From assembly GCA_033723415.1 (NCBI GenBank), contig JAWVXD010000006.1, positions 64,001 to 128,000 on the forward strand: DNA of 64,000 bases, read 5' to 3'. This DNA comes from Sulfurospirillaceae bacterium (GTDB lineage: Bacteria > Campylobacterota > Campylobacteria > Campylobacterales > Sulfurospirillaceae). Shown here piece by piece: positions 33,906 through 64,000 of this stretch. Within the stretch, counting starts at the first letter, position 1. Every line of letters begins with the position of its first letter. The translations under genes were made by a program, and so were the position numbers. The notes under the pieces were generated by a model that was not told the origin of the DNA, ran no database searches, and saw only the letters and a list, made by a program, of their open reading frames with translations.

Positions 33906-36044
33906 TTATACTAAACTAAGCCCGACTTTTCCTTTTTCATATTCAACTGATACGACTTCGATTTTGGGTAAGTATTGATTTAACGCTAATACCTCAAGTG
34001 GATGTGCTATTCTCTTTTCACTCATCTTTGAGATGTGGATCATCCCGTCATTTTTCAACCCTATATCCACAAATGCTCCAAAATCCGTGATATTTCTCAC
34101 AATACCCGATACAAAGCTGCCCTCTTTTAACATTTTGATATCCGTGATGTCATTTTTAAACGGGATCGGCGGGAGTTCCACTCTGGGGTCAAAACCCGGT
34201 TTTTTCAGCTCAAAGATGATGTCTTTGAGCGTCGCTTCGCCGATGCCTAGAGCTTGCGCACTCTCACTAACACTCAGGTGATCCAAATCCATCGTTTCTA
34301 GTTTCTTGGCCACTTCATAGCTTTCAGGGTGAATCCCACTGTTGTCAAACAGATTCTTGCCCTCTTTGATGCGAATAAATCCAGCGGCTTGTTCGTACGC
34401 TTTTTTACCCAAGCCTTTAACGTTTAAGAGGTCTGATTTGGTGTGAAAATTCCCCTTTTCATTGCGATATTGTAAGATATTGGCTGCGAGACCTGAGCTG
34501 ATGCCTGCCACATAAGAAAGAAGCGACAAAGAAGCCGAGTTGATATCGACACCCACGCGATTGACCAAGTCTGTTGTAACATCGCCTAGCTTTTTTTCTA
34601 AAAGTTTTTGATTCACGTCATGTTGATACTGACCGATGCCTAGTGACTTTGGATCGATCTTGACAAAAGTAGCCATAGGGTCTCTTAATCTCTGAGCTAT
34701 AGAGATCGCTCCTCTTATGGTCACATCAAGTTTGGGATATTCATCTTGAGCAAGCTTGGAAGCAGAATAAACCGAAGCCCCCGCTTCTGAGACAACCGTA
34801 TAATCAAGCTTGATGCCCTCTTGATTGAGCTTTGCAAAAAACTCCTGCGTTTCCCTTGAAGCGGTACCGTTGCCGATGGCAACAGCCGTGATGTGGTACT
34901 TTTTGGTTAATTCAATGATTTTATTTTTAGAATTTTCATACTCATTTTTCGGCTGTGTCGGATAGATCACGGCGTGCTCTAAATAATTGCCGTTTTCATC
35001 GATAACGGCTAGCTTACATCCGCTCACAAATGCGGGATCTACGCCTAAGATCACTCTTTTGGTCACAGGCGGCGTCATGAGAAGCTGAGCGAGATTTTTA
35101 CCAAAAACACTCACGGCAGACTCATCGGCACGCTCTTTCAAGATATGGTGCACTTCACGCTCGATGGAAGGGAAAAGCAATCTTTTAAAGCCGTCCATAT
35201 ACGCATCAAAGAGCAACTCTTTGGAAGTGGAAGCATTTTGAGGGATATTGTGTCGTTTGATGTCTTGTTCAACTCGCTCAATATCTATAGATATTTTAAC
35301 ACTCAACTCTTTTTCATTGACTCCTCGCATGATCGCTAAGTAGCGATGTGAGGGAATGGTTGCTACTTTTTCACTTTTATCTACAAAATTTTTAAAGAGT
35401 CCATTTTCTTGAAAATTTTTCGTTTTTTTGATCTCTAAAATTCCAACACGTTGCAAACTCTCTCTTAAAGCTTCCCTGGTACTTGGCTCTTCGGCATATC
35501 TTTGTGCCAAAATATCCTTGGCTCCGGTGATAGCATCATCAATCGAAGTGATGTGATCATTTAAAAAATCTTTGGCTTTTGATCTAAACTCTGCCGTACT
35601 GAGTTTTGCACTTTGCAGGATATTCGCCAATCCTTCCAAGCCATGCGCGATCGCAACTCCGGCACGTGAGGTTTTGTTTTCCTTGAACGGTCTGTAGATG
35701 TCCTCTAAAACTCTCAGATTGTCCGCCTCATCGATGCTTTTTTGTATCGCAGCACTCAAGTTCGCTCGTTCGCTGATGAGCCTTGCGATCTCCTCTTTTT
35801 TTTCCAAAAGTCTTTTACTGCTTATGTAGATCGTCTCGAACTCACGAAGCGTCTCATCACTCGCTCCTCCGGTCATCTCTTTGCGATACCGTGCGATAAA
35901 GGGGATGGTGGAGCCCTCTTCTAAAAGTTTTAAGATATTTTGGATCTGCTCTTTGGTCAGTTTTGTTTTTTTTACGAGATGGGTGATCAACTTGTTCATG
36001 AATAATCTCTTTAACATATATTTTTTTGTTTGCAATAGTATCAT
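33906..36044 (-). CDS. tex: Tex family RNA-binding protein
   Basis: TIPFIARYRKE, GNGTASRET, SEAGASVYSAS, GIGQYQHDV, S1 domain; start probably 35999. Confidence 0.95.
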   Translation of the reverse strand: MILLQTKKYMLKRLFMNKLITHLVKKTKLTKEQIQNILKLLEEGSTIPFIARYRKEMTGGASDETLREFETIYISSKRLLEKKEEIARLISERANLSAAIQKSIDEADNLRVLEDIYRPFKENKTSRAGVAIAHGLEGLANILQSAKLSTAEFRSKAKDFLNDHITSIDDAITGAKDILAQRYAEEPSTREALRESLQRVGILEIKKTKNFQENGLFKNFVDKSEKVATIPSHRYLAIMRGVNEKELSVKISIDIERVEQDIKRHNIPQNASTSKELLFDAYMDGFKRLLFPSIEREVHHILKERADESAVSVFGKNLAQLLMTPPVTKRVILGVDPAFVSGCKLAVIDENGNYLEHAVIYPTQPKNEYENSKNKIIELTKKYHITAVAIGNGTASRETQEFFAKLNQEGIKLDYTVVSEAGASVYSASKLAQDEYPKLDVTIRGAISIAQRLRDPMATFVKIDPKSLGIGQYQHDVNQKLLEKKLGDVTTDLVNRVGVDINSASLSLLSYVAGISSGLAANILQYRNEKGNFHTKSDLLNVKGLGKKAYEQAAGFIRIKEGKNLFDNSGIHPESYEVAKKLETMDLDHLSVSESAQALGIGEATLKDIIFELKKPGFDPRVELPPIPFKNDITDIKMLKEGSFVSGIVRNITDFGAFVDIGLKNDGMIHISKMSEKRIAHPLEVLALNQYLPKIEVVSVEYEKGKVGLSLV

Positions 36045-57781: not shown

Positions 57782-58002
57782 TTAAGGTTACCTCTCTCTT
57801 CACTGCTAAGATATACTCCAAAAGATCAAACCTTAAGCCATTTTGCCCTCTAACCTTAAAGAAGTAGCAAACCTTAACAATATCACTTCGTAGCTTAATG
57901 ATAATGTATTAAATTATTCTATTTTAATACATTATAGACACTTTATCCCACTTTTTGAGAGGAATACTCCCGTTTAAGGTTTAAGCTTCATTCTAACCTT
58001 AA
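57782..58002. repeat. six copies of AACCTTAA in both orientations around a 13-bp inverted repeat
   Basis: 57782(-), 57829, 57852, 57870, 57974(-), 57995; inverted repeat 57901-57913/57923-57935. Confidence 0.75.
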
Positions 58003-58272
58003 AAATATCATCGGGGTGGGGTGGATTTTTTGCAAAACCCCATTGACTACCCCGCCCCATCGTTCATTTCTGATTATCTGCGTTTCCCCTCCTATGTCTT
58101 GGTGCTTAGCGCTTATTTAAAGGTAAAAGAGATAAAAAACCGCGCCGGAGTTTGCCCTACGGGCATGGTAGCGCGGGCAAGATACAACAAGATGATAGAG
58201 GGGATATGATAGGAAGTGCGGTGTGTCTGATGACACCGCACTTGAATCACTTAAAGGCTATTTGGTTTGGAA

Positions 58273-60960
58273 CTAGAATTTGCTAAGATCTAAGTTAATG
58301 CTAGAGTTAGCACTTCTAATCTTATCGAGGCTGAGATTGTATTGAGCATCTGCTTTTCTTGCAATGGCAGAGTTATTTTCCGCTTTCGCCTTTTTATACT
58401 CGTGTTTTTTAAGGTTTCTGGCTGCACGTGCTTTCTGTAGCAATTCTTTTTTTGCATTAAAATGTCTTACACCGGCCCCTCGTAAAAGCATTTCTTCATA
58501 ACTCATAGGCTCATTATAATAGTTTTTAGGATCTGCAAGTCCTGTAGCCTTACGGATAAATTGTTGCCCATATCTACCAAAAGTAATCGGAGGCATATAG
58601 TTTTTTGCCATTTCCAACACTCTTTTAGCAATCTTGCTGCTAGTGCTGTCATATTTTGTATCAATCTTATAACCTAAAGGTGTTTCGCCATTGATCATAC
58701 GATAAGCACCTCCAACAAAACCACCGGCAAATTCTAGCGTATCAAAACCATCAAATCTCATACCAGGAACCAATCGTCCTGCATTAAGCTGCCAACCTCC
58801 GCCAAGTTGTACCCAACTCTTCGCACCGAATGCGTTTGCAGCCCAACCACTAGCCGCCCAACTTGGTTTATACATATTTGCCTTATCATTATCACCAAGC
58901 CAAGCACTTGCACCTGTTCCCATGAGAGCTGCCTGCAGCATAGCAAATTTAAAAGGATGCTTTGCAACTGCTTTCAAGACCATTGGAGTTGCTTTATAAG
59001 AGTAATGAACAAAAGGCATTATTCCCATTTTATCCATGACTCTAAAAGAACCAGGTATCGGAGTCGTATAATCTACATATGCTTCTTGTGATATCTTAAA
59101 AGCCGTCTTTTCATCAACTCCCTCAGAGATCTGGCGATAAAAGGAAGCAAGTTTAAAGATCTTATCTTCCCAATCATATATATGCCTCAAAGCATCGCCA
59201 CTCTTTGATCCCTTAGAGAAGTAAGCATTTTTCAAGATTGACATGATGATCGGCTCTTTTTTGTTATCAAACGGCTGCATCTTCTCCATCATATCTAAAC
59301 TTGAATTTAGCCCGTACTTATTTGCTTTTTGAACAAGAGCATCAAATTTACTCCTATCTGTACTCAGCATAGATAATACTTTGGCTAAAGCGGTCATATC
59401 ACCATGTAAAAAAGAGAGCATTACATTGCTGCCAACATTATAAAGATGCGTAAAAGGGTTTTTAACCGTTAGATTGACTTTAATGTGATCGATAAGAGGA
59501 TACCAATAGGTCTCAAAAAGCCCCATATTCTCTTTGACAATCCCTGCACCTTTAACAGCATCTGCGACCTCTTTTGGTACATATTTACCTGCTAAAGCAC
59601 CATATTTTTTGATTCCACCGCCTACTGTTTCATCACTCATCCTTACAAACCCGTCTTTTTCTACATCACTTCCAAATGTATCAGCGACATTTTTGAGGGT
59701 TTGCGCTTTAAGCAGCTGCACTCTTTGTTCTGCAAGTGTCTTTGGTATCACAAAATTTGCATCTTCGATCATCCCAAGTGCAATCCGTTCATCATGCGTT
59801 AGATCTTTCCTCGCACGGAAACGCTGATCAAAATAAAACTTCTTGATCAGTCCCCCTTCTTTGATGCTATCAATATAGTATCGCTTAAGATAATCTTGTA
59901 TCTTGTTTTTTTCCTGCAGTGCACCGGCCTTGACTAGAGCATCAGCATTCGTATCGATGAGATCTCTAATCTTAGTATAAGTCTCTCTCAAATGCTCCGG
60001 CAGAGTTGAGGGTTGTTTATCTCCTGTCAAAGCCTGGTGTATAAGGACCGATTCATCTGGACTTAGGTGCGTATCTAAAAAGTCTTTGACTTGTGCTGCT
60101 TGCTCATGTACTTGAGACATAGCGATCCTAAAGTCTTGTGTAATCTCTCCGACTTTTTTTGTGATATCGCTAACGGTAGCGAGCCTTTTTATCCTACCAC
60201 CGCTTATCCTCGTAGTGATCGCTTCATCTACCTTACCAATGATTTGTGCTGCTTTAGCAAAAGCTTTATCGACAGCAGATCCGTCAATATTTGAGATCTT
60301 ATCTGCACCAGGAAAGACCATGCTATTTATTTTTTTACCGTTTTTAGCTATACTTTCACTAGATGCAGGAGGGTGAGGGATGACTATGTTGTCCCGGGCG
60401 GTCTTATTGACTGCTTCGTTGAGGGCATTGGACACCTGGGCGCTCTCCTGTTTCTTATAAAAGGTAATAACCGAATGCCTCCCCTTTACTCCACGAGTTC
60501 CAACGATCGCATAATATAAATCTCCATCGATCACCTTCTCATAAAGATGATTTACTCTTCCTGTTTGAACACTTTTAGATAAAGAAACTTTCCCCTCTCT
60601 TATCACCCGGCCTAGATGTAAAAGTTCATTGAGAGATAAATCATTACCAAGATGACCTTTTACTATATGTTTTGCACCCATATTTTCAGTGCCCTTGTGT
60701 AACCAAACATGATCGACATACTTTCCAAGAGCATCAAGATCTTCTCGTCTTATTTTCACAGAGTCTTGTACCCCGGAAGCTACTCCAAGCACACCACTCT
60801 CTTCTTTTGTCAGATCTCTGCCTAAATAGTTCTTTAATGCCTCTGCTGCTTGCGCGTATTCTTTAGGATCAAGGTTTTTAGCTTTGATCATATCTGTTAT
60901 GTCGGCTAAAACTTCTTTTTGTTTTTTTAAGCCGTCTTTACCTTTGCAATCCATTAGCAT
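58273..60960 (-). CDS. large polyvalent/ejection-type phage protein with an N-terminal BECR-like (Barnase/EndoU/colicin D-E5/RelE) nuclease domain
   Basis: aa ~80-170 GAKHIVKGH..GRVIREG..VITFYK; helical C-terminal region (NPFTHLYN, VDYT, PFVHYSYK) like podovirus DNA-transfer proteins; AGGAG SD. Confidence 0.65.
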   Translation of the reverse strand: MLMDCKGKDGLKKQKEVLADITDMIKAKNLDPKEYAQAAEALKNYLGRDLTKEESGVLGVASGVQDSVKIRREDLDALGKYVDHVWLHKGTENMGAKHIVKGHLGNDLSLNELLHLGRVIREGKVSLSKSVQTGRVNHLYEKVIDGDLYYAIVGTRGVKGRHSVITFYKKQESAQVSNALNEAVNKTARDNIVIPHPPASSESIAKNGKKINSMVFPGADKISNIDGSAVDKAFAKAAQIIGKVDEAITTRISGGRIKRLATVSDITKKVGEITQDFRIAMSQVHEQAAQVKDFLDTHLSPDESVLIHQALTGDKQPSTLPEHLRETYTKIRDLIDTNADALVKAGALQEKNKIQDYLKRYYIDSIKEGGLIKKFYFDQRFRARKDLTHDERIALGMIEDANFVIPKTLAEQRVQLLKAQTLKNVADTFGSDVEKDGFVRMSDETVGGGIKKYGALAGKYVPKEVADAVKGAGIVKENMGLFETYWYPLIDHIKVNLTVKNPFTHLYNVGSNVMLSFLHGDMTALAKVLSMLSTDRSKFDALVQKANKYGLNSSLDMMEKMQPFDNKKEPIIMSILKNAYFSKGSKSGDALRHIYDWEDKIFKLASFYRQISEGVDEKTAFKISQEAYVDYTTPIPGSFRVMDKMGIMPFVHYSYKATPMVLKAVAKHPFKFAMLQAALMGTGASAWLGDNDKANMYKPSWAASGWAANAFGAKSWVQLGGGWQLNAGRLVPGMRFDGFDTLEFAGGFVGGAYRMINGETPLGYKIDTKYDSTSSKIAKRVLEMAKNYMPPITFGRYGQQFIRKATGLADPKNYYNEPMSYEEMLLRGAGVRHFNAKKELLQKARAARNLKKHEYKKAKAENNSAIARKADAQYNLSLDKIRSANSSINLDLSKF
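60361..60455 (+). ncRNA. candidate structured antisense RNA inside the polyvalent-protein gene
   Basis: -10 gcTATACT at 60347-60354; closing stem and two hairpins with many G-U pairs that form only on the + strand. Confidence 0.55.
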
Positions 60961-63900
60961 ATCTCCTCTACAATTTCTGGTTTGATTTTTCCATTTTGTC
61001 CGACATGTTTATCTTCAAAAGAAGCCAACTTATTCCCTGCATCTTTTCCATCGATCTGATTATTTTCGATATCTTTTAAAGTCTTTTGATAAAAAGCTTC
61101 CTGATCTAATATCCTTCTATTCTTTGCATCGATCATCTTTTGGATATTTGCTTTAGCATTGACGATTTTCTTCTCGTAATCTGCCTTATAGAGTTGTTTC
61201 TTTTTGGGATCTTTTGTTTTTGCTATTTTTTCTAAGAGATCTCCAAGATATTGATTCGGACGATCACTTTTCAGCCTTGTTCCTAAAGTAGATATCTCTT
61301 TTTTAGTAGTTGCGATGCCTCTTGTGATAGCATCTCTGCGTGATTTTAGAAAATACCCCTCTTCATTGACCGCCTGCAGCTCGTTTTCTAACCTGTTATA
61401 CTCGATTTGTAGCTCTAGCTCTTTACGTTTCACTGGGTCCTTTTCCATCTGCAACATAAACTCTTCTTCTGTAGGCATCGCGCTAGCACCATCTACGATT
61501 TCGATTCGATCCTTTGGTTTCGCATCCCAAAGCGCCTCATTCCATCCTCTCTTATTTGCGACCGTTTTATACATCAATTCATCAAAAGTACCGGCTTGAA
61601 AGAAGTAATGAACATTGACAGAATCATTAATATTGCCAAAGCGAATACCTCTGCCGCCTCTTTGTTTTAGTTCTGCAGGAGTCCAGGGGATATCCACGTT
61701 GTAGATATCTTTTGTATATTTTTGGATATTCATCCCCTCGCCTGCCCCTTTTGTCGTACCGATCACGACTTTGACTTTGCCTTTATCATAAGCATCAACA
61801 ATCGCTTGTTTTAACTCTACAGCCTTGCGTCCACTTGCTCCTCTGATTTCTTTTCCTGTGGTAGGGTCTGTTATCTCTTTACCTGAGATGATTGCGATCT
61901 CTTGAGGTTTGTATTTTTTTGAAGCTAAGAGTTTTTGTTTCATCTCTTGATGTAAGTTTTGATCTAAAGTGGCATCAAAGATATTGCCGTCCTTATTTAG
62001 ATCTCTTGGGACTTGTTGTTCATGCCCTGCATTATCGAGAAAGATGATCTGCCCGGCATTTTTATCTTTACTTCTTCTCTCCAAAACTTTTTGGATCGTC
62101 GATTCTAGTTTATTATTATCAGGGGTAGGATCGATAAAGTCTCTCACCCCAGCTCTTTGATATGCTCTTGGATCTGTACTAGCACTCACACCCTCCGAGA
62201 ATATCCCCATCATTTTATTACGCTTTGAACTGTCACTTTTAGCTTCTAGAAGTCTTTTTTTTATATCACTAAATACGATATCACTCTCATGACTGCCATC
62301 GAGATAATGAGTATTTACTTTTTCATCCGGCAATGTGATGATCCCCTTAGATTTAAAATCTTCCATTGAGATACGCTCAACATATCTATCCATGATCGCT
62401 CTTAAATCATAAGCATTTTTAATCGCATTCAAGCCATATTCAATACCGCCTCTTTTGTTCATATTTGCACCAAAATCAAAGAAACGATCTGCAAAATCTC
62501 TATCTGTGTAGATACCGTATTCATTAAAAATACTGTTATCTAAATGTTTCAGCATCGTATATATTTCCATAGGTTTATTTGGTGTAGGAGTTGCATCAAA
62601 CATAAAAATGTTTTTACCGTTATTCTTTTCACTGATATAACGAGTTTTAAATCTAAAATCATAAGCCAAAGCACTATCAAGTGTTACGACATGAGTATTT
62701 TTATCAAGCGTGAGACTAAAAGGTTTACCAAGCTTAAAGTTCACCAATTTACTATTGATGCCTATATTTTTAAAAGCCCTGGCTTCATCGGCAAATATCG
62801 CATCGATCCCTAGATTATCTATCGTGATACGTTTATCAAGGTTTTCTCTACGAAGCAGCTCTTTATACTTCTTGATCTTCTCTGTTTGCAAAGCAAGTGC
62901 CCTGCCTTTTAGATCTTCTGTTTTTAGATTTTCGTTCAATAATTCATCGACATATCTCATTTCAATATCATGAGGAAGTTTCAGTTGTGAAAATCCCTCA
63001 TGAGAGATCAAGATATAATCAGCTGAATTATTCCCAAGTTCGTATAGCTTCTTGCTCCTGGTACTTTTTTCAAGATTAAAGAGATTCACAATCTTGGCAT
63101 CCGGGAATGCTCTCTTTATCTCTTTTTCCCAATTCCCTATAACTTTGGAAGGGACTACAAACAAAGGCTTCTTGGCAGCACCTTTATTTTTCAAAGCCCG
63201 TGCGAGTATAACAGCCGATAGCGTTTTACCCCCACCGACATCATGTGCGTTGATCCCTTTCCCCTCATATAAACTTTTAGTAACCCACTGTATTTGATTA
63301 TCACGAGAGATCAACGTCGGTTCGATTTCTTTTAAAGTATCTTGGATCAGATAACTTGCTTTTCCGTAATCAGGGGAGACATACCCGTTAAATTTACGAT
63401 TATATATAGATTCTATTTTTTTTGTTAATTTTGGATCAGAGAGGATCTTCTCTTTGATCTTGGCTAAAGTACTTTGGACTTCATCATTCGCTTCTCTTAA
63501 TCTTCTACGATATGAAGACATCGTTTCATCTTTTTTGATAGATATCAATGCTTTTGAATTGATATAATTATCAAAGATCGGACCAAAGCCGGTGTCATAC
63601 TCTCTTATCTTTTGTTCGCCCTTTTGTATTGTTCTCTCGACCTTACGCAGAGGGTATATCTCTATACCTTTTTCTAACAACCAAGGTTCATCACCTCTTA
63701 GAGAAATATTTTCGATAGTTTTTTTCTCCGGCAATAATTCTTCCAAAGCTGCTTTTTGTTTTTCTAATTTTGCAAAAACGACACCATCATCTTTATACTT
63801 TTCAAATGCAATATTGAGATTATCAAGCTTATCGTAAAGTTTCCCACTATAGTACAAGATATCATTTTGAAGTTTCCCTGGGGCAATGACACTATATCCC

Positions 63901-64000
63901 TCTTTGAGAGCATTATGGAAATCTTCTTTTTTTATATATTCCCCACCTTGAGAGATATCAACGATTCCTTTATTGTCCTCATGATATAAAAGACGAGATT
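60954..64000 (-). CDS. DarB-like SNF2 helicase polyvalent protein, 5' end beyond window
   Basis: AHDVGGGKT, DEARAFKN, ATPTPN, GEGMNIQ, PWTPAELKQRGGRGIRFGN; frame checked open from 63857 to the window edge. Confidence 0.85.
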   Translation of the reverse strand, partial: SRLLYHEDNKGIVDISQGGEYIKKEDFHNALKEGYSVIAPGKLQNDILYYSGKLYDKLDNLNIAFEKYKDDGVVFAKLEKQKAALEELLPEKKTIENISLRGDEPWLLEKGIEIYPLRKVERTIQKGEQKIREYDTGFGPIFDNYINSKALISIKKDETMSSYRRRLREANDEVQSTLAKIKEKILSDPKLTKKIESIYNRKFNGYVSPDYGKASYLIQDTLKEIEPTLISRDNQIQWVTKSLYEGKGINAHDVGGGKTLSAVILARALKNKGAAKKPLFVVPSKVIGNWEKEIKRAFPDAKIVNLFNLEKSTRSKKLYELGNNSADYILISHEGFSQLKLPHDIEMRYVDELLNENLKTEDLKGRALALQTEKIKKYKELLRRENLDKRITIDNLGIDAIFADEARAFKNIGINSKLVNFKLGKPFSLTLDKNTHVVTLDSALAYDFRFKTRYISEKNNGKNIFMFDATPTPNKPMEIYTMLKHLDNSIFNEYGIYTDRDFADRFFDFGANMNKRGGIEYGLNAIKNAYDLRAIMDRYVERISMEDFKSKGIITLPDEKVNTHYLDGSHESDIVFSDIKKRLLEAKSDSSKRNKMMGIFSEGVSASTDPRAYQRAGVRDFIDPTPDNNKLESTIQKVLERRSKDKNAGQIIFLDNAGHEQQVPRDLNKDGNIFDATLDQNLHQEMKQKLLASKKYKPQEIAIISGKEITDPTTGKEIRGASGRKAVELKQAIVDAYDKGKVKVVIGTTKGAGEGMNIQKYTKDIYNVDIPWTPAELKQRGGRGIRFGNINDSVNVHYFFQAGTFDELMYKTVANKRGWNEALWDAKPKDRIEIVDGASAMPTEEEFMLQMEKDPVKRKELELQIEYNRLENELQAVNEEGYFLKSRRDAITRGIATTKKEISTLGTRLKSDRPNQYLGDLLEKIAKTKDPKKKQLYKADYEKKIVNAKANIQKMIDAKNRRILDQEAFYQKTLKDIENNQIDGKDAGNKLASFEDKHVGQNGKIKPEIVEEIC

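Follow-up and report, generated by a model that had tools for sequence, protein, structure and literature searches.

In type III toxin-antitoxin (TA) systems such as ToxIN, an endoribonuclease is paired with an adjacent RNA antidote, the tandem-repeat ToxI, and in type I TA systems RNase III-type decay of the RNA duplex is the expected route. In polymorphic toxins, the VENN motif of CdiA demarcates the pre-toxin part. Here we compare these and other described systems with an element found in a 64,000-nucleotide (nt) stretch of DNA from a Sulfurospirillaceae bacterium (contig JAWVXD010000006.1; the whole stretch is hereafter called the window), in which the codons linking a predicted BECR-fold nuclease module to the remainder of an 895-amino acid (aa) protein face, on the plus strand, promoter-like letters and a strongly folded putative RNA. 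The explanation towards which we lean, with modest confidence, is that a small antisense RNA gene resides in the linker codons, is tied to the nuclease module and acts as a cis-antisense brake. A preliminary description of the locus had read it as an embedded RNA cassette that moves with the nuclease domain and neutralises or guides it; its core observation, antisense promoter-like letters and a fold in a nuclease linker, is confirmed, and that reading as a whole is partly supported.

The PBECR polyvalent proteins of phages have two hallmarks, a conserved His in an N-terminal helix and a Thr/Ser near the C-terminal strand (Iyer et al. 2017; PMC5512222, available portion). Like the proteins described there, the protein in the window has a BECR-fold domain within a multidomain, virion-associated type of phage protein, a DarB-like SNF2/methylase neighbour and swapped modules; unlike them, its domain matches no Pfam PBECR model. 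The words 'antisense' and 'linker' are absent from the available text of PMC5512222, where no embedded element is described, and 'antisense' is likewise absent from a 2026 BECR preprint.

Antisense RNAs (asRNAs) have been validated by Northern blot opposite two genes of H. pylori, HPnc5970 and HPnc6000 against HP1116 and HPnc2240 and HPnc2250 against HP0488 (Table 1 of PMC8322730, which, in its available portion, traces them to the differential RNA sequencing and Northern blots of Sharma et al. 2010). HP1116 is given as the strain 26695 counterpart of jhp1044 in the available portions of PMC549213 and PMC3221604, jhp1044 being in turn a mosaic PBECR polyvalent protein (PMC5512222, same portion as above), and HP0488 presumably carries the same domain as the window and HP1116. 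As with these asRNAs, the element in the window lies antisense inside a Campylobacterota prophage-type polyvalent gene with PBECR domains, and the domain of the window is homologous to the Helicobacter one. The window's host nevertheless belongs to another family, the promoter in the Helicobacter linker is weaker, and the likeness is drawn at the level of genes. No function is reported for the HPnc asRNAs and they have no Rfam family; no published link between them and PBECR linkers was found in the literature, on which supplements may bear, and their names were not found in the supplement of PMC8035401, of which 12 of 13 files were covered.

The element also resembles the RNAs of type I TA systems, such as aapA/IsoA of H. 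pylori and hok/Sok, in being a putative small structured cis-antisense RNA with a putatively harmful gene opposite; in those systems the RNA is constitutively transcribed, and the 5' stem-loop architecture is similar. RNase III-type decay of the duplex is described for IsoA1 in the available portion of PMC8322730. Unlike in type I systems, the putative toxin is an RNase domain in an 895-aa protein and not a small membrane or hydrophobic peptide, the RNA overlaps the linker behind the domain and not the start region, leaving the translation start unmasked, and the candidate RNA gene lies wholly inside the coding sequence, in frame with it.

Codon choice and predicted fold in the linker

The linker occupies 60322..60453 on the minus strand (aa 170-213, KQESAQVS...PHPPASSESIAKNGKKINS), is rich in rare codons and in GC at third codon positions (GC3), and ends in the peptide S-I-A-K-N. 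It had been described as unusually GC-rich, and it is indeed the most GC-rich 100-nt stretch of the 895-aa gene, at 0.54 compared with about 0.35-0.45 elsewhere. The GC3 of the 32 codons under the fold is 0.66, the maximum of the gene, against 0.33 for the whole gene, and among these codons are CGG, TCC and CTC, which account for 2%, 7% and 10% of their respective synonymous sets.

Read on the plus strand, 60361..60455 is predicted to form a 95-nt RNA with a 13-bp closing helix, hairpin A (60377-60395), hairpin B (60396-60416) and a weak third arm, the closing stem and both hairpins being predicted exactly as first drawn. Its minimum free energy (MFE) is -44.4 kcal/mol (z -4.76), a stability that none of 200 dinucleotide shuffles attained, and it is the lowest among the 12,782 windows of 95 nt taken at 10-nt steps along both strands of the 64 kb. 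The runner-up, at -38.7 (34161; 34140-34280), lies inside a 712-aa minus-strand open reading frame (ORF), has a z of just -1.86 and is probably unremarkable, not comparable to the fold at 60361. The sense strand of 60361-60455 reaches -22.5 kcal/mol (z -1.40) and the plus strand folded as DNA -13.2 kcal/mol (z -1.72); the signal therefore belongs to RNA, and to the plus strand. The eight G-U pairs that the preliminary description had counted, and had taken to form on the plus strand only, proved to be 10 of the 35 pairs of the MFE structure; the strand specificity of the fold stood.

The RNA overlaps codons 169-200 of the ORF, far from its start, and its fold stops at codon K169, right behind the motif VITFYKK with which the nuclease domain ends; the coincidence of the two ends, already pointed out for this locus, is thus real. 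Directly 3' of the closing helix follows a U-rich tail (UUUCUUAU; 60451..60458, plus strand), the antisense of Y-K-K codons.

Three kinds of codon-preserving control were set against the native fold. Synonymous recoding by local codon usage gave a mean of -22.1 (z -5.6), with 0 of 1000 variants as stable; under GC3-matched recoding the mean was -30.8 and 8 of 1500 variants reached the native stability; and permutation of codons within amino acids, in which few changes are possible, gave a z of -1.8, with 36 of 1000 as stable. The fold thus exceeds the demands of the peptide and of GC content, if not overwhelmingly, and these controls support the view that the choice of codons in the linker is bent towards the fold.

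The same numbers bear on a reading, rather unlikely in our judgement, in which there is no functional RNA and the element is a by-product of something else. The linker would then be a disordered peptide with a conserved tail (E-S/T-I-P-Q-K..K-S-Q), for example a protease site or a docking motif, and its rare GC-rich codons would slow the ribosome for the benefit of domain folding, the plus-strand fold and the promoter letters being incidental. The modest outcome of the permutation within amino acids suits this reading, as does the position of the rare-codon cluster, 2-30 codons past the domain end, where a pause would aid folding; the tail peptide is moreover conserved across very distant domains. 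Against it, the fold in the window is an extreme outlier, matched by so few of the GC3-matched recodings, and further objections arise from the codons of the relatives.

A conserved putative antisense promoter behind PBECR-type domains

In relatives, whose loci we designate by L numbers, PBECR-type domains are followed by a low-complexity linker of 25-45 residues that ends in E-S/T-I-P-Q-K/N, often continued by K-S-Q, and the strand opposite the linker end carries a T-tract, TGn and TATAnT, with TTGACT 17-18 nt upstream, which is close to a consensus promoter. This motif occurs behind PBECR1, PBECR2 (also in L025 and L031), PBECR3 (also in L042) and window-type domains. A search with the peptide pattern [ST]I[PSAT][QK][NKL], deduplicated at 80% identity, returned 10 instances, every one of them in a linker behind a domain. 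In these, Ile was encoded by ATA in 10/10 cases (background in the same ORFs 0.43), Ser by AGT in 6/6 (0.26) and Thr by ACT in 4/4 (0.36). A search based on DNA showed that the Ser/Thr codon can also be AAT (Asn) or ATT (Ile), the residue there varying among S, T, N and I; hence just the fifth letter of the -10 varies, as in L003, where it reads TATAAT.

The -35 box, with at least 5/6 matches at a spacing of 17-18 nt, was present in 9 of 26 anchored instances and in two codon phases, one read as S-Q (L030, L035, L025 and L012) and the other as K-V-N, K-V-K, L-V-K, N-I-K or S-G-K (in L024, L010, L047b, L031 and L047a). A promoter scan tool made the linker site its best or only call per kb in L035, L010 and L012 (0.4-0.6 expected). 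The choice of codons, the single free letter and the two reading frames together indicate selection on the DNA beyond the peptide, and demonstrate, by sequence comparison, that the nucleotides of a putative antisense promoter have been conserved in the relatives after PBECR domains of four kinds. These are the observations that the by-product reading accommodates worst: a constraint on the peptide leaves the exclusive use of codons of the form ANT and of ATA unexplained (10/10, 6/6 and 4/4), one residue switches among S, T, N and I with its A and T letters unchanged, and the -35 hexamer persists although the two reading frames in which it occurs yield different peptides.

In an unbiased test of 34 non-identical domain ends, the best antisense promoter in the 240 nt following each was compared with that in 407 control windows. 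Eleven points were reached by 6/34 domain ends and by 2.2% of the controls, ten points by 11/34 and by 13.5%, respectively (Mann-Whitney p 7e-6, the instances not being independent). The Helicobacter linker site is a weaker version, with TTGACT or TTGATC, 17 nt, and TAGGAT or TAAGAT.

In the window, the promoter-like element (60326..60354, plus strand) consists of TTTATT (60326-60331), a T-rich spacer of 17 nt and TATACT (60349-60354), and lacks TGn; T-tracts precede the letters gcTATACT at 60347-60354. This TTTATT-17-TATACT aligns by position with TTGATT-17-TGaTATACT of L026 and is equivalent by position to the TTGACT-N17/18-TGnTATAnT of other relatives. The proposal that promoter and RNA move with the domain as an in-frame cassette has therefore gained real support, from the occurrence of the motif after four domain types and from its conservation at the DNA level, and an equivalent antisense element, which had been called for in homologues, was found in many relatives' linkers and is missing from Campylobacter-type and solo forms of the domain.

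The nuclease module and a possible antisense brake

On the explanation that we favour, the DNA of the linker behind the BECR-fold module would have a second role, its other strand being the gene of a small RNA. The promoter would lie in the codons of the linker's last residues and the RNA would start at about 60361, its 5' end being captured immediately in a long helix across the entire linker, which in the window would give the 95-nt three-way junction. The RNA would be perfectly complementary to the linker part of the messenger RNA (mRNA) of the polyvalent protein. In the lysogen, a harmful RNase module would thereby be silenced in a type I-like manner, either through pairing with this mRNA or through transcription head-on to the gene. 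We infer from the sequence that a plus-strand RNA is made, that the weaker promoter of the window fires and where the RNA ends, and the same basis suggests that the RNA may serve as a cis-antisense brake on the gene that bears the nuclease. We favour a role of this kind since it follows from the perfect complementarity of such an RNA to the mRNA, with no further assumption needed.

Several observations weigh against this explanation, beginning with the promoter of the window. It is the poorest of the set, with a -35 match of 3/6 and no TGn; it scores 8 of 13 points, a value that 75% of the 407 control windows reach, and the promoter scan tool makes no call at the site. The claim that T-tracts and a gcTATACT -10 precede the fold is accordingly correct in its letters and fails in promoter strength, which is at background level, a point that also speaks for the by-product reading. 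Canonical terminators at the linker stems were not called by a simple terminator scan in the window, L035, L010 or L012. When a longer segment of 206 nt is folded, hairpins A and B are retained but the closing helix pairs differently; formation of the three-way junction therefore requires that the RNA end near 60455-60460. The relatives add objections of their own, in that some of their instances share kinship or come from the same genome, the TTGACT-17-TAGGAT of phage FrB58M is no better by score than many chance sites in its gene, and 10/34 domain ends carry no promoter. The latter are all Campylobacter-type or solo forms of ~200 aa (L038, L041, L072, L074, L075 and L077-L081) that end in NLKEPMxFxNPK, and the nuclease is therefore not strictly dependent on the element.

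The structure of the relatives' linkers is likewise equivocal as to strand. Where a locus has a nuclease module at the N-terminus, the most stable antisense fold (lowest MFE) within the first 1500 nt lies in the linker behind the domain (6/6 loci); z was -0.7 to -4.5 for windows optimised for energy. Also weighing against the favoured explanation, fixed 100-nt windows downstream of the -10 gave a mean z of -1.4 on both strands; the linkers were therefore delimited by the domain end and the -10, from 7 nt past the -10 through the domain end (17 instances), and thus delimited they were equally structured on the two strands (mean z -2.32 antisense and -2.34 sense, n=17, Wilcoxon p 0.59), so that the structure is not specific to the antisense strand in the relatives, as the by-product reading would have it. 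A 5' closing stem, taken as at least 8 of the first 15 nt paired across at least 30 nt, was present in 15 of these 17 linkers, against 7.0 expected from shuffles (P ~5e-5), three Helicobacter rows and two others among the 17 being close kin. The stems differ in sequence between loci, the spacer is likewise unconserved, and the U-rich tail that follows the relatives' stems is the antisense of R-N/K codons. The recurrent feature is thus a hairpin spanning the linker, and the strong strand asymmetry of the fold is particular to the window.

The nuclease domain itself (60448..60774, minus strand, ~aa 63-171) contains the motifs GAKHIVKGH and, at its end, VITFYKK. An AlphaFold model, built from a 13-row alignment (A2) of the window domain and its relatives, had a mean predicted local distance difference test (pLDDT) score of 83.4, its last modelled residues, at the start of the linker, falling below 50. 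The best match of this model in the PDB by Foldseek was the CdiA-CT toxin 7m5f_C (E 4.8e-4; Z 8.2, root mean square deviation 3.4, 95 residues aligned), followed by BrnT (Z 5.5), RelE-type toxins (Z 4-5; RelE, ParE and HigB together span 3-5), another CdiA-CT, the colicin D tRNase (4.4) and EndoU (3.1). The His of the GAKHIVKGH helix motif is invariant (13/13 rows) and most of the 13 rows end in (I/V)(T/S)FY, which reads VITFY in the window, so that the domain has both PBECR hallmark residues in this alignment. Searched against Pfam, including PBECR1-5, the N-terminus of the window's protein matched no family even at E up to 10, and its relative L022 matched PBECR3 (E 2.6e-4) and PBECR1 (0.0061), both below the cut-off. 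The domain of the window itself matched the Helicobacter phage FrB58M (E 7e-5) and genomes of the genus g54. The modelled domain is a BECR fold, which bears out the BECR-like domain that had been recognised in the N-terminus of the ORF, and it is a predicted PBECR-like RNase of a related family outside the Pfam PBECR families.

A nuclease of this kind invites the reading that the RNA binds the BECR nuclease itself, as a type III-like antitoxin, a substrate mimic, a transfer RNA (tRNA)-like decoy or a guide, which we find quite unlikely. It draws support from the association of the element with four RNase domain families and no other domain type among those seen, and from stems whose sequence is particular to each linker, as would be the case for a cognate inhibitor. 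It would also fit a lack of protein immunity genes: among the neighbours of the ORF, none was recognisable by gene list, Pfam or PHROG, as had been stated at the outset, a structure-based search for one not having been made. As in ToxIN, an endoribonuclease would have its RNA antidote encoded beside it; the differences from ToxIN are the lack of tandem repeats, the location of the RNA on the other strand and the lack of an operon divided by a terminator. Between 59800 and 61200, no tandem repeats were detected at a score of at least 30, a single weak 20-nt direct pair apart, which removes the ToxI-like repeats from the type III comparison. The tRNA-like variant fared no better, since ARAGORN found 0 genes in the window and Rfam gave nothing credible between 58000 and 62000 (best E 1.4), with no tRNA-clan match at E up to 10; at the loci of 12 relatives, Rfam matched nothing but tRNAs, located elsewhere. 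The element is missing from the solo and Campylobacter-type versions of the domain, and polyvalent proteins are considered to act once they have been injected into a new host cell (PMC5512222, available portion), where RNA from the producer cell would not obviously be present.

Finally, the plus-strand transcript could be the mRNA of a hydrophobic peptide of 26 aa, akin to the small proteins of type I toxins. An AGGAGG followed, after a 7-nt gap, by an ATG at 60380 opens a hydrophobic ORF of 26 codons that ends at 60460 (plus strand). The Shine-Dalgarno (SD) sequence is buried in the closing helix, hydrophobic ORFs are the default of G/U-rich antisense strands, and a comparable SD-led ORF is missing from 13/17 of the relatives' linkers. 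We consider this reading highly improbable, and rejected the small ORF because it is unconserved.

The protein family, its setting and what the element would mean

The 895-aa ORF, which stood up as predicted on the minus strand (58273..60960), comprises an N-terminus MLMDCKGK, the BECR-fold RNase-like module, the linker and a body of ~680 aa. The protein has no Pfam or PHROG family at the curated level, and its conserved body is, by these profiles, not assignable to a family. Five close homologues (P0002-P0006) of 871-889 aa share 58-65% identity over the first 260 aa. Eight loci from genomes and five from metagenomes encode relatives of the body, as do 19 of 401 genomes searched within the order; the profile of the window-type domain matched in 37 of the 401; a scan of viral contigs with alignment A1 gave 94 pattern matches and 0 relatives.

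The body relatives differ in their N-terminal modules, which are PBECR3 in L019/L033 and L030, PBECR2 in L024, PBECR1, twice, in L036 and the window-type domain in L022 and L026, with no module in L023, L027 and L028, and these differing modules join at the linker. This mosaicism agrees, as judged from sequence, with the account of the Helicobacter jhp1044 group as mosaic, with up to 50 domain combinations (Iyer et al. 2017; PMC5512222, available portion). Both facts fit a reading in which the linker is a DNA recombination joint: the conserved 30-nt motif and the inverted repeat would form the 3' border of a nuclease cassette for in-frame swaps, comparable to VENN in CdiA and, more loosely, to attC in integrons, and would explain the mosaic architectures. 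The likeness to VENN lies in a short conserved motif that borders a variable nuclease module and a conserved body, with modules swapped; unlike VENN, the linker motif follows an N-terminal module and matches a full sigma-70 promoter on the other strand, with conservation beyond the peptide. The linkers are hairpin-prone on both strands, as such a joint might require. A joint need not, however, match both sigma-70 hexamers, TGn and a 17-18 nt spacing; the spacer and stems, unconserved in sequence, offer little homology; the fold in the window, which relies on G-U pairs, forms only weakly as DNA (z -1.72); and a dedicated recombinase was neither sought nor seen. We regard the joint as an improbable explanation of the element, one that could coexist with a role as RNA.

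Further observations concern the same family. The M-x-C N-terminus (MLMDCKGK in the window, 60940-60960, minus strand) keeps its Cys across all body relatives, whichever module they carry (L019, L022-L028). Solo forms of the domain (among L041 and L072-L081) might have adjacent protein partners. In L010, a row of five tRNA genes (400-842) lies beside a polyvalent gene with a window-type domain. L006 and L017, which belong to the same 1.6-Mb genome, are an identical pair of genes of ~960-1000 aa with a window-type domain, 630 kb apart and reminiscent of HP0488/HP1116.

The window is a prophage stretch within a genome of 2.43 Mb in 17 contigs. When contigs from four sequencing runs were compared with it, only the run from which it probably came matched, and no variants were seen; no RNA run was listed as covering 59000-62000. 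Upstream of the 895-aa ORF, whose start overlaps its stop by 7 nt, lies a polyvalent gene with an SNF2 helicase and DarB-like character (60954..63998, minus strand, extending past the window edge), which matched SNF2-rel_dom (E 2.2e-14) and Helicase_C in Pfam and, in PHROG, DNA methyltransferase/DarB-like antirestriction families (E 3.7e-89 and 1.4e-60). Downstream, in convergent orientation, is a terminase gene. The intergenic segment between the terminase and 895-aa genes (57980-58270) is GC-rich and hairpin-prone, with arms of G/C runs at ~58006-58062 and a hairpin at 58215-58245 just beyond the stop codon of the 895-aa gene, and has no Rfam or tRNA match.

The nuclease modules of polyvalent phage proteins are widely shuffled, with no immunity partner known. 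If it is true that a small antisense RNA gene in the linker acts as a brake, it would be a compact answer to the question of how shuffled nuclease modules stay harmless or regulated, and a plain example of dual coding, in which one strand specifies a peptide and its complement an entire RNA gene; a function and a family would also fall to the unexplained Northern-validated asRNAs opposite HP1116 and HP0488 in H. pylori. A wider generalisation, tentative and on balance doubtful, is that each PBECR module in the polyvalent proteins of these Campylobacterota phages carries its own antidote gene on the opposite strand, with a sigma-70 promoter and a hairpin RNA, as a two-stranded in-frame cassette kept through shuffling. 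Were this so, a TA unit would be nested in a single coding stretch, and modules would have a new way to carry their regulation with them.

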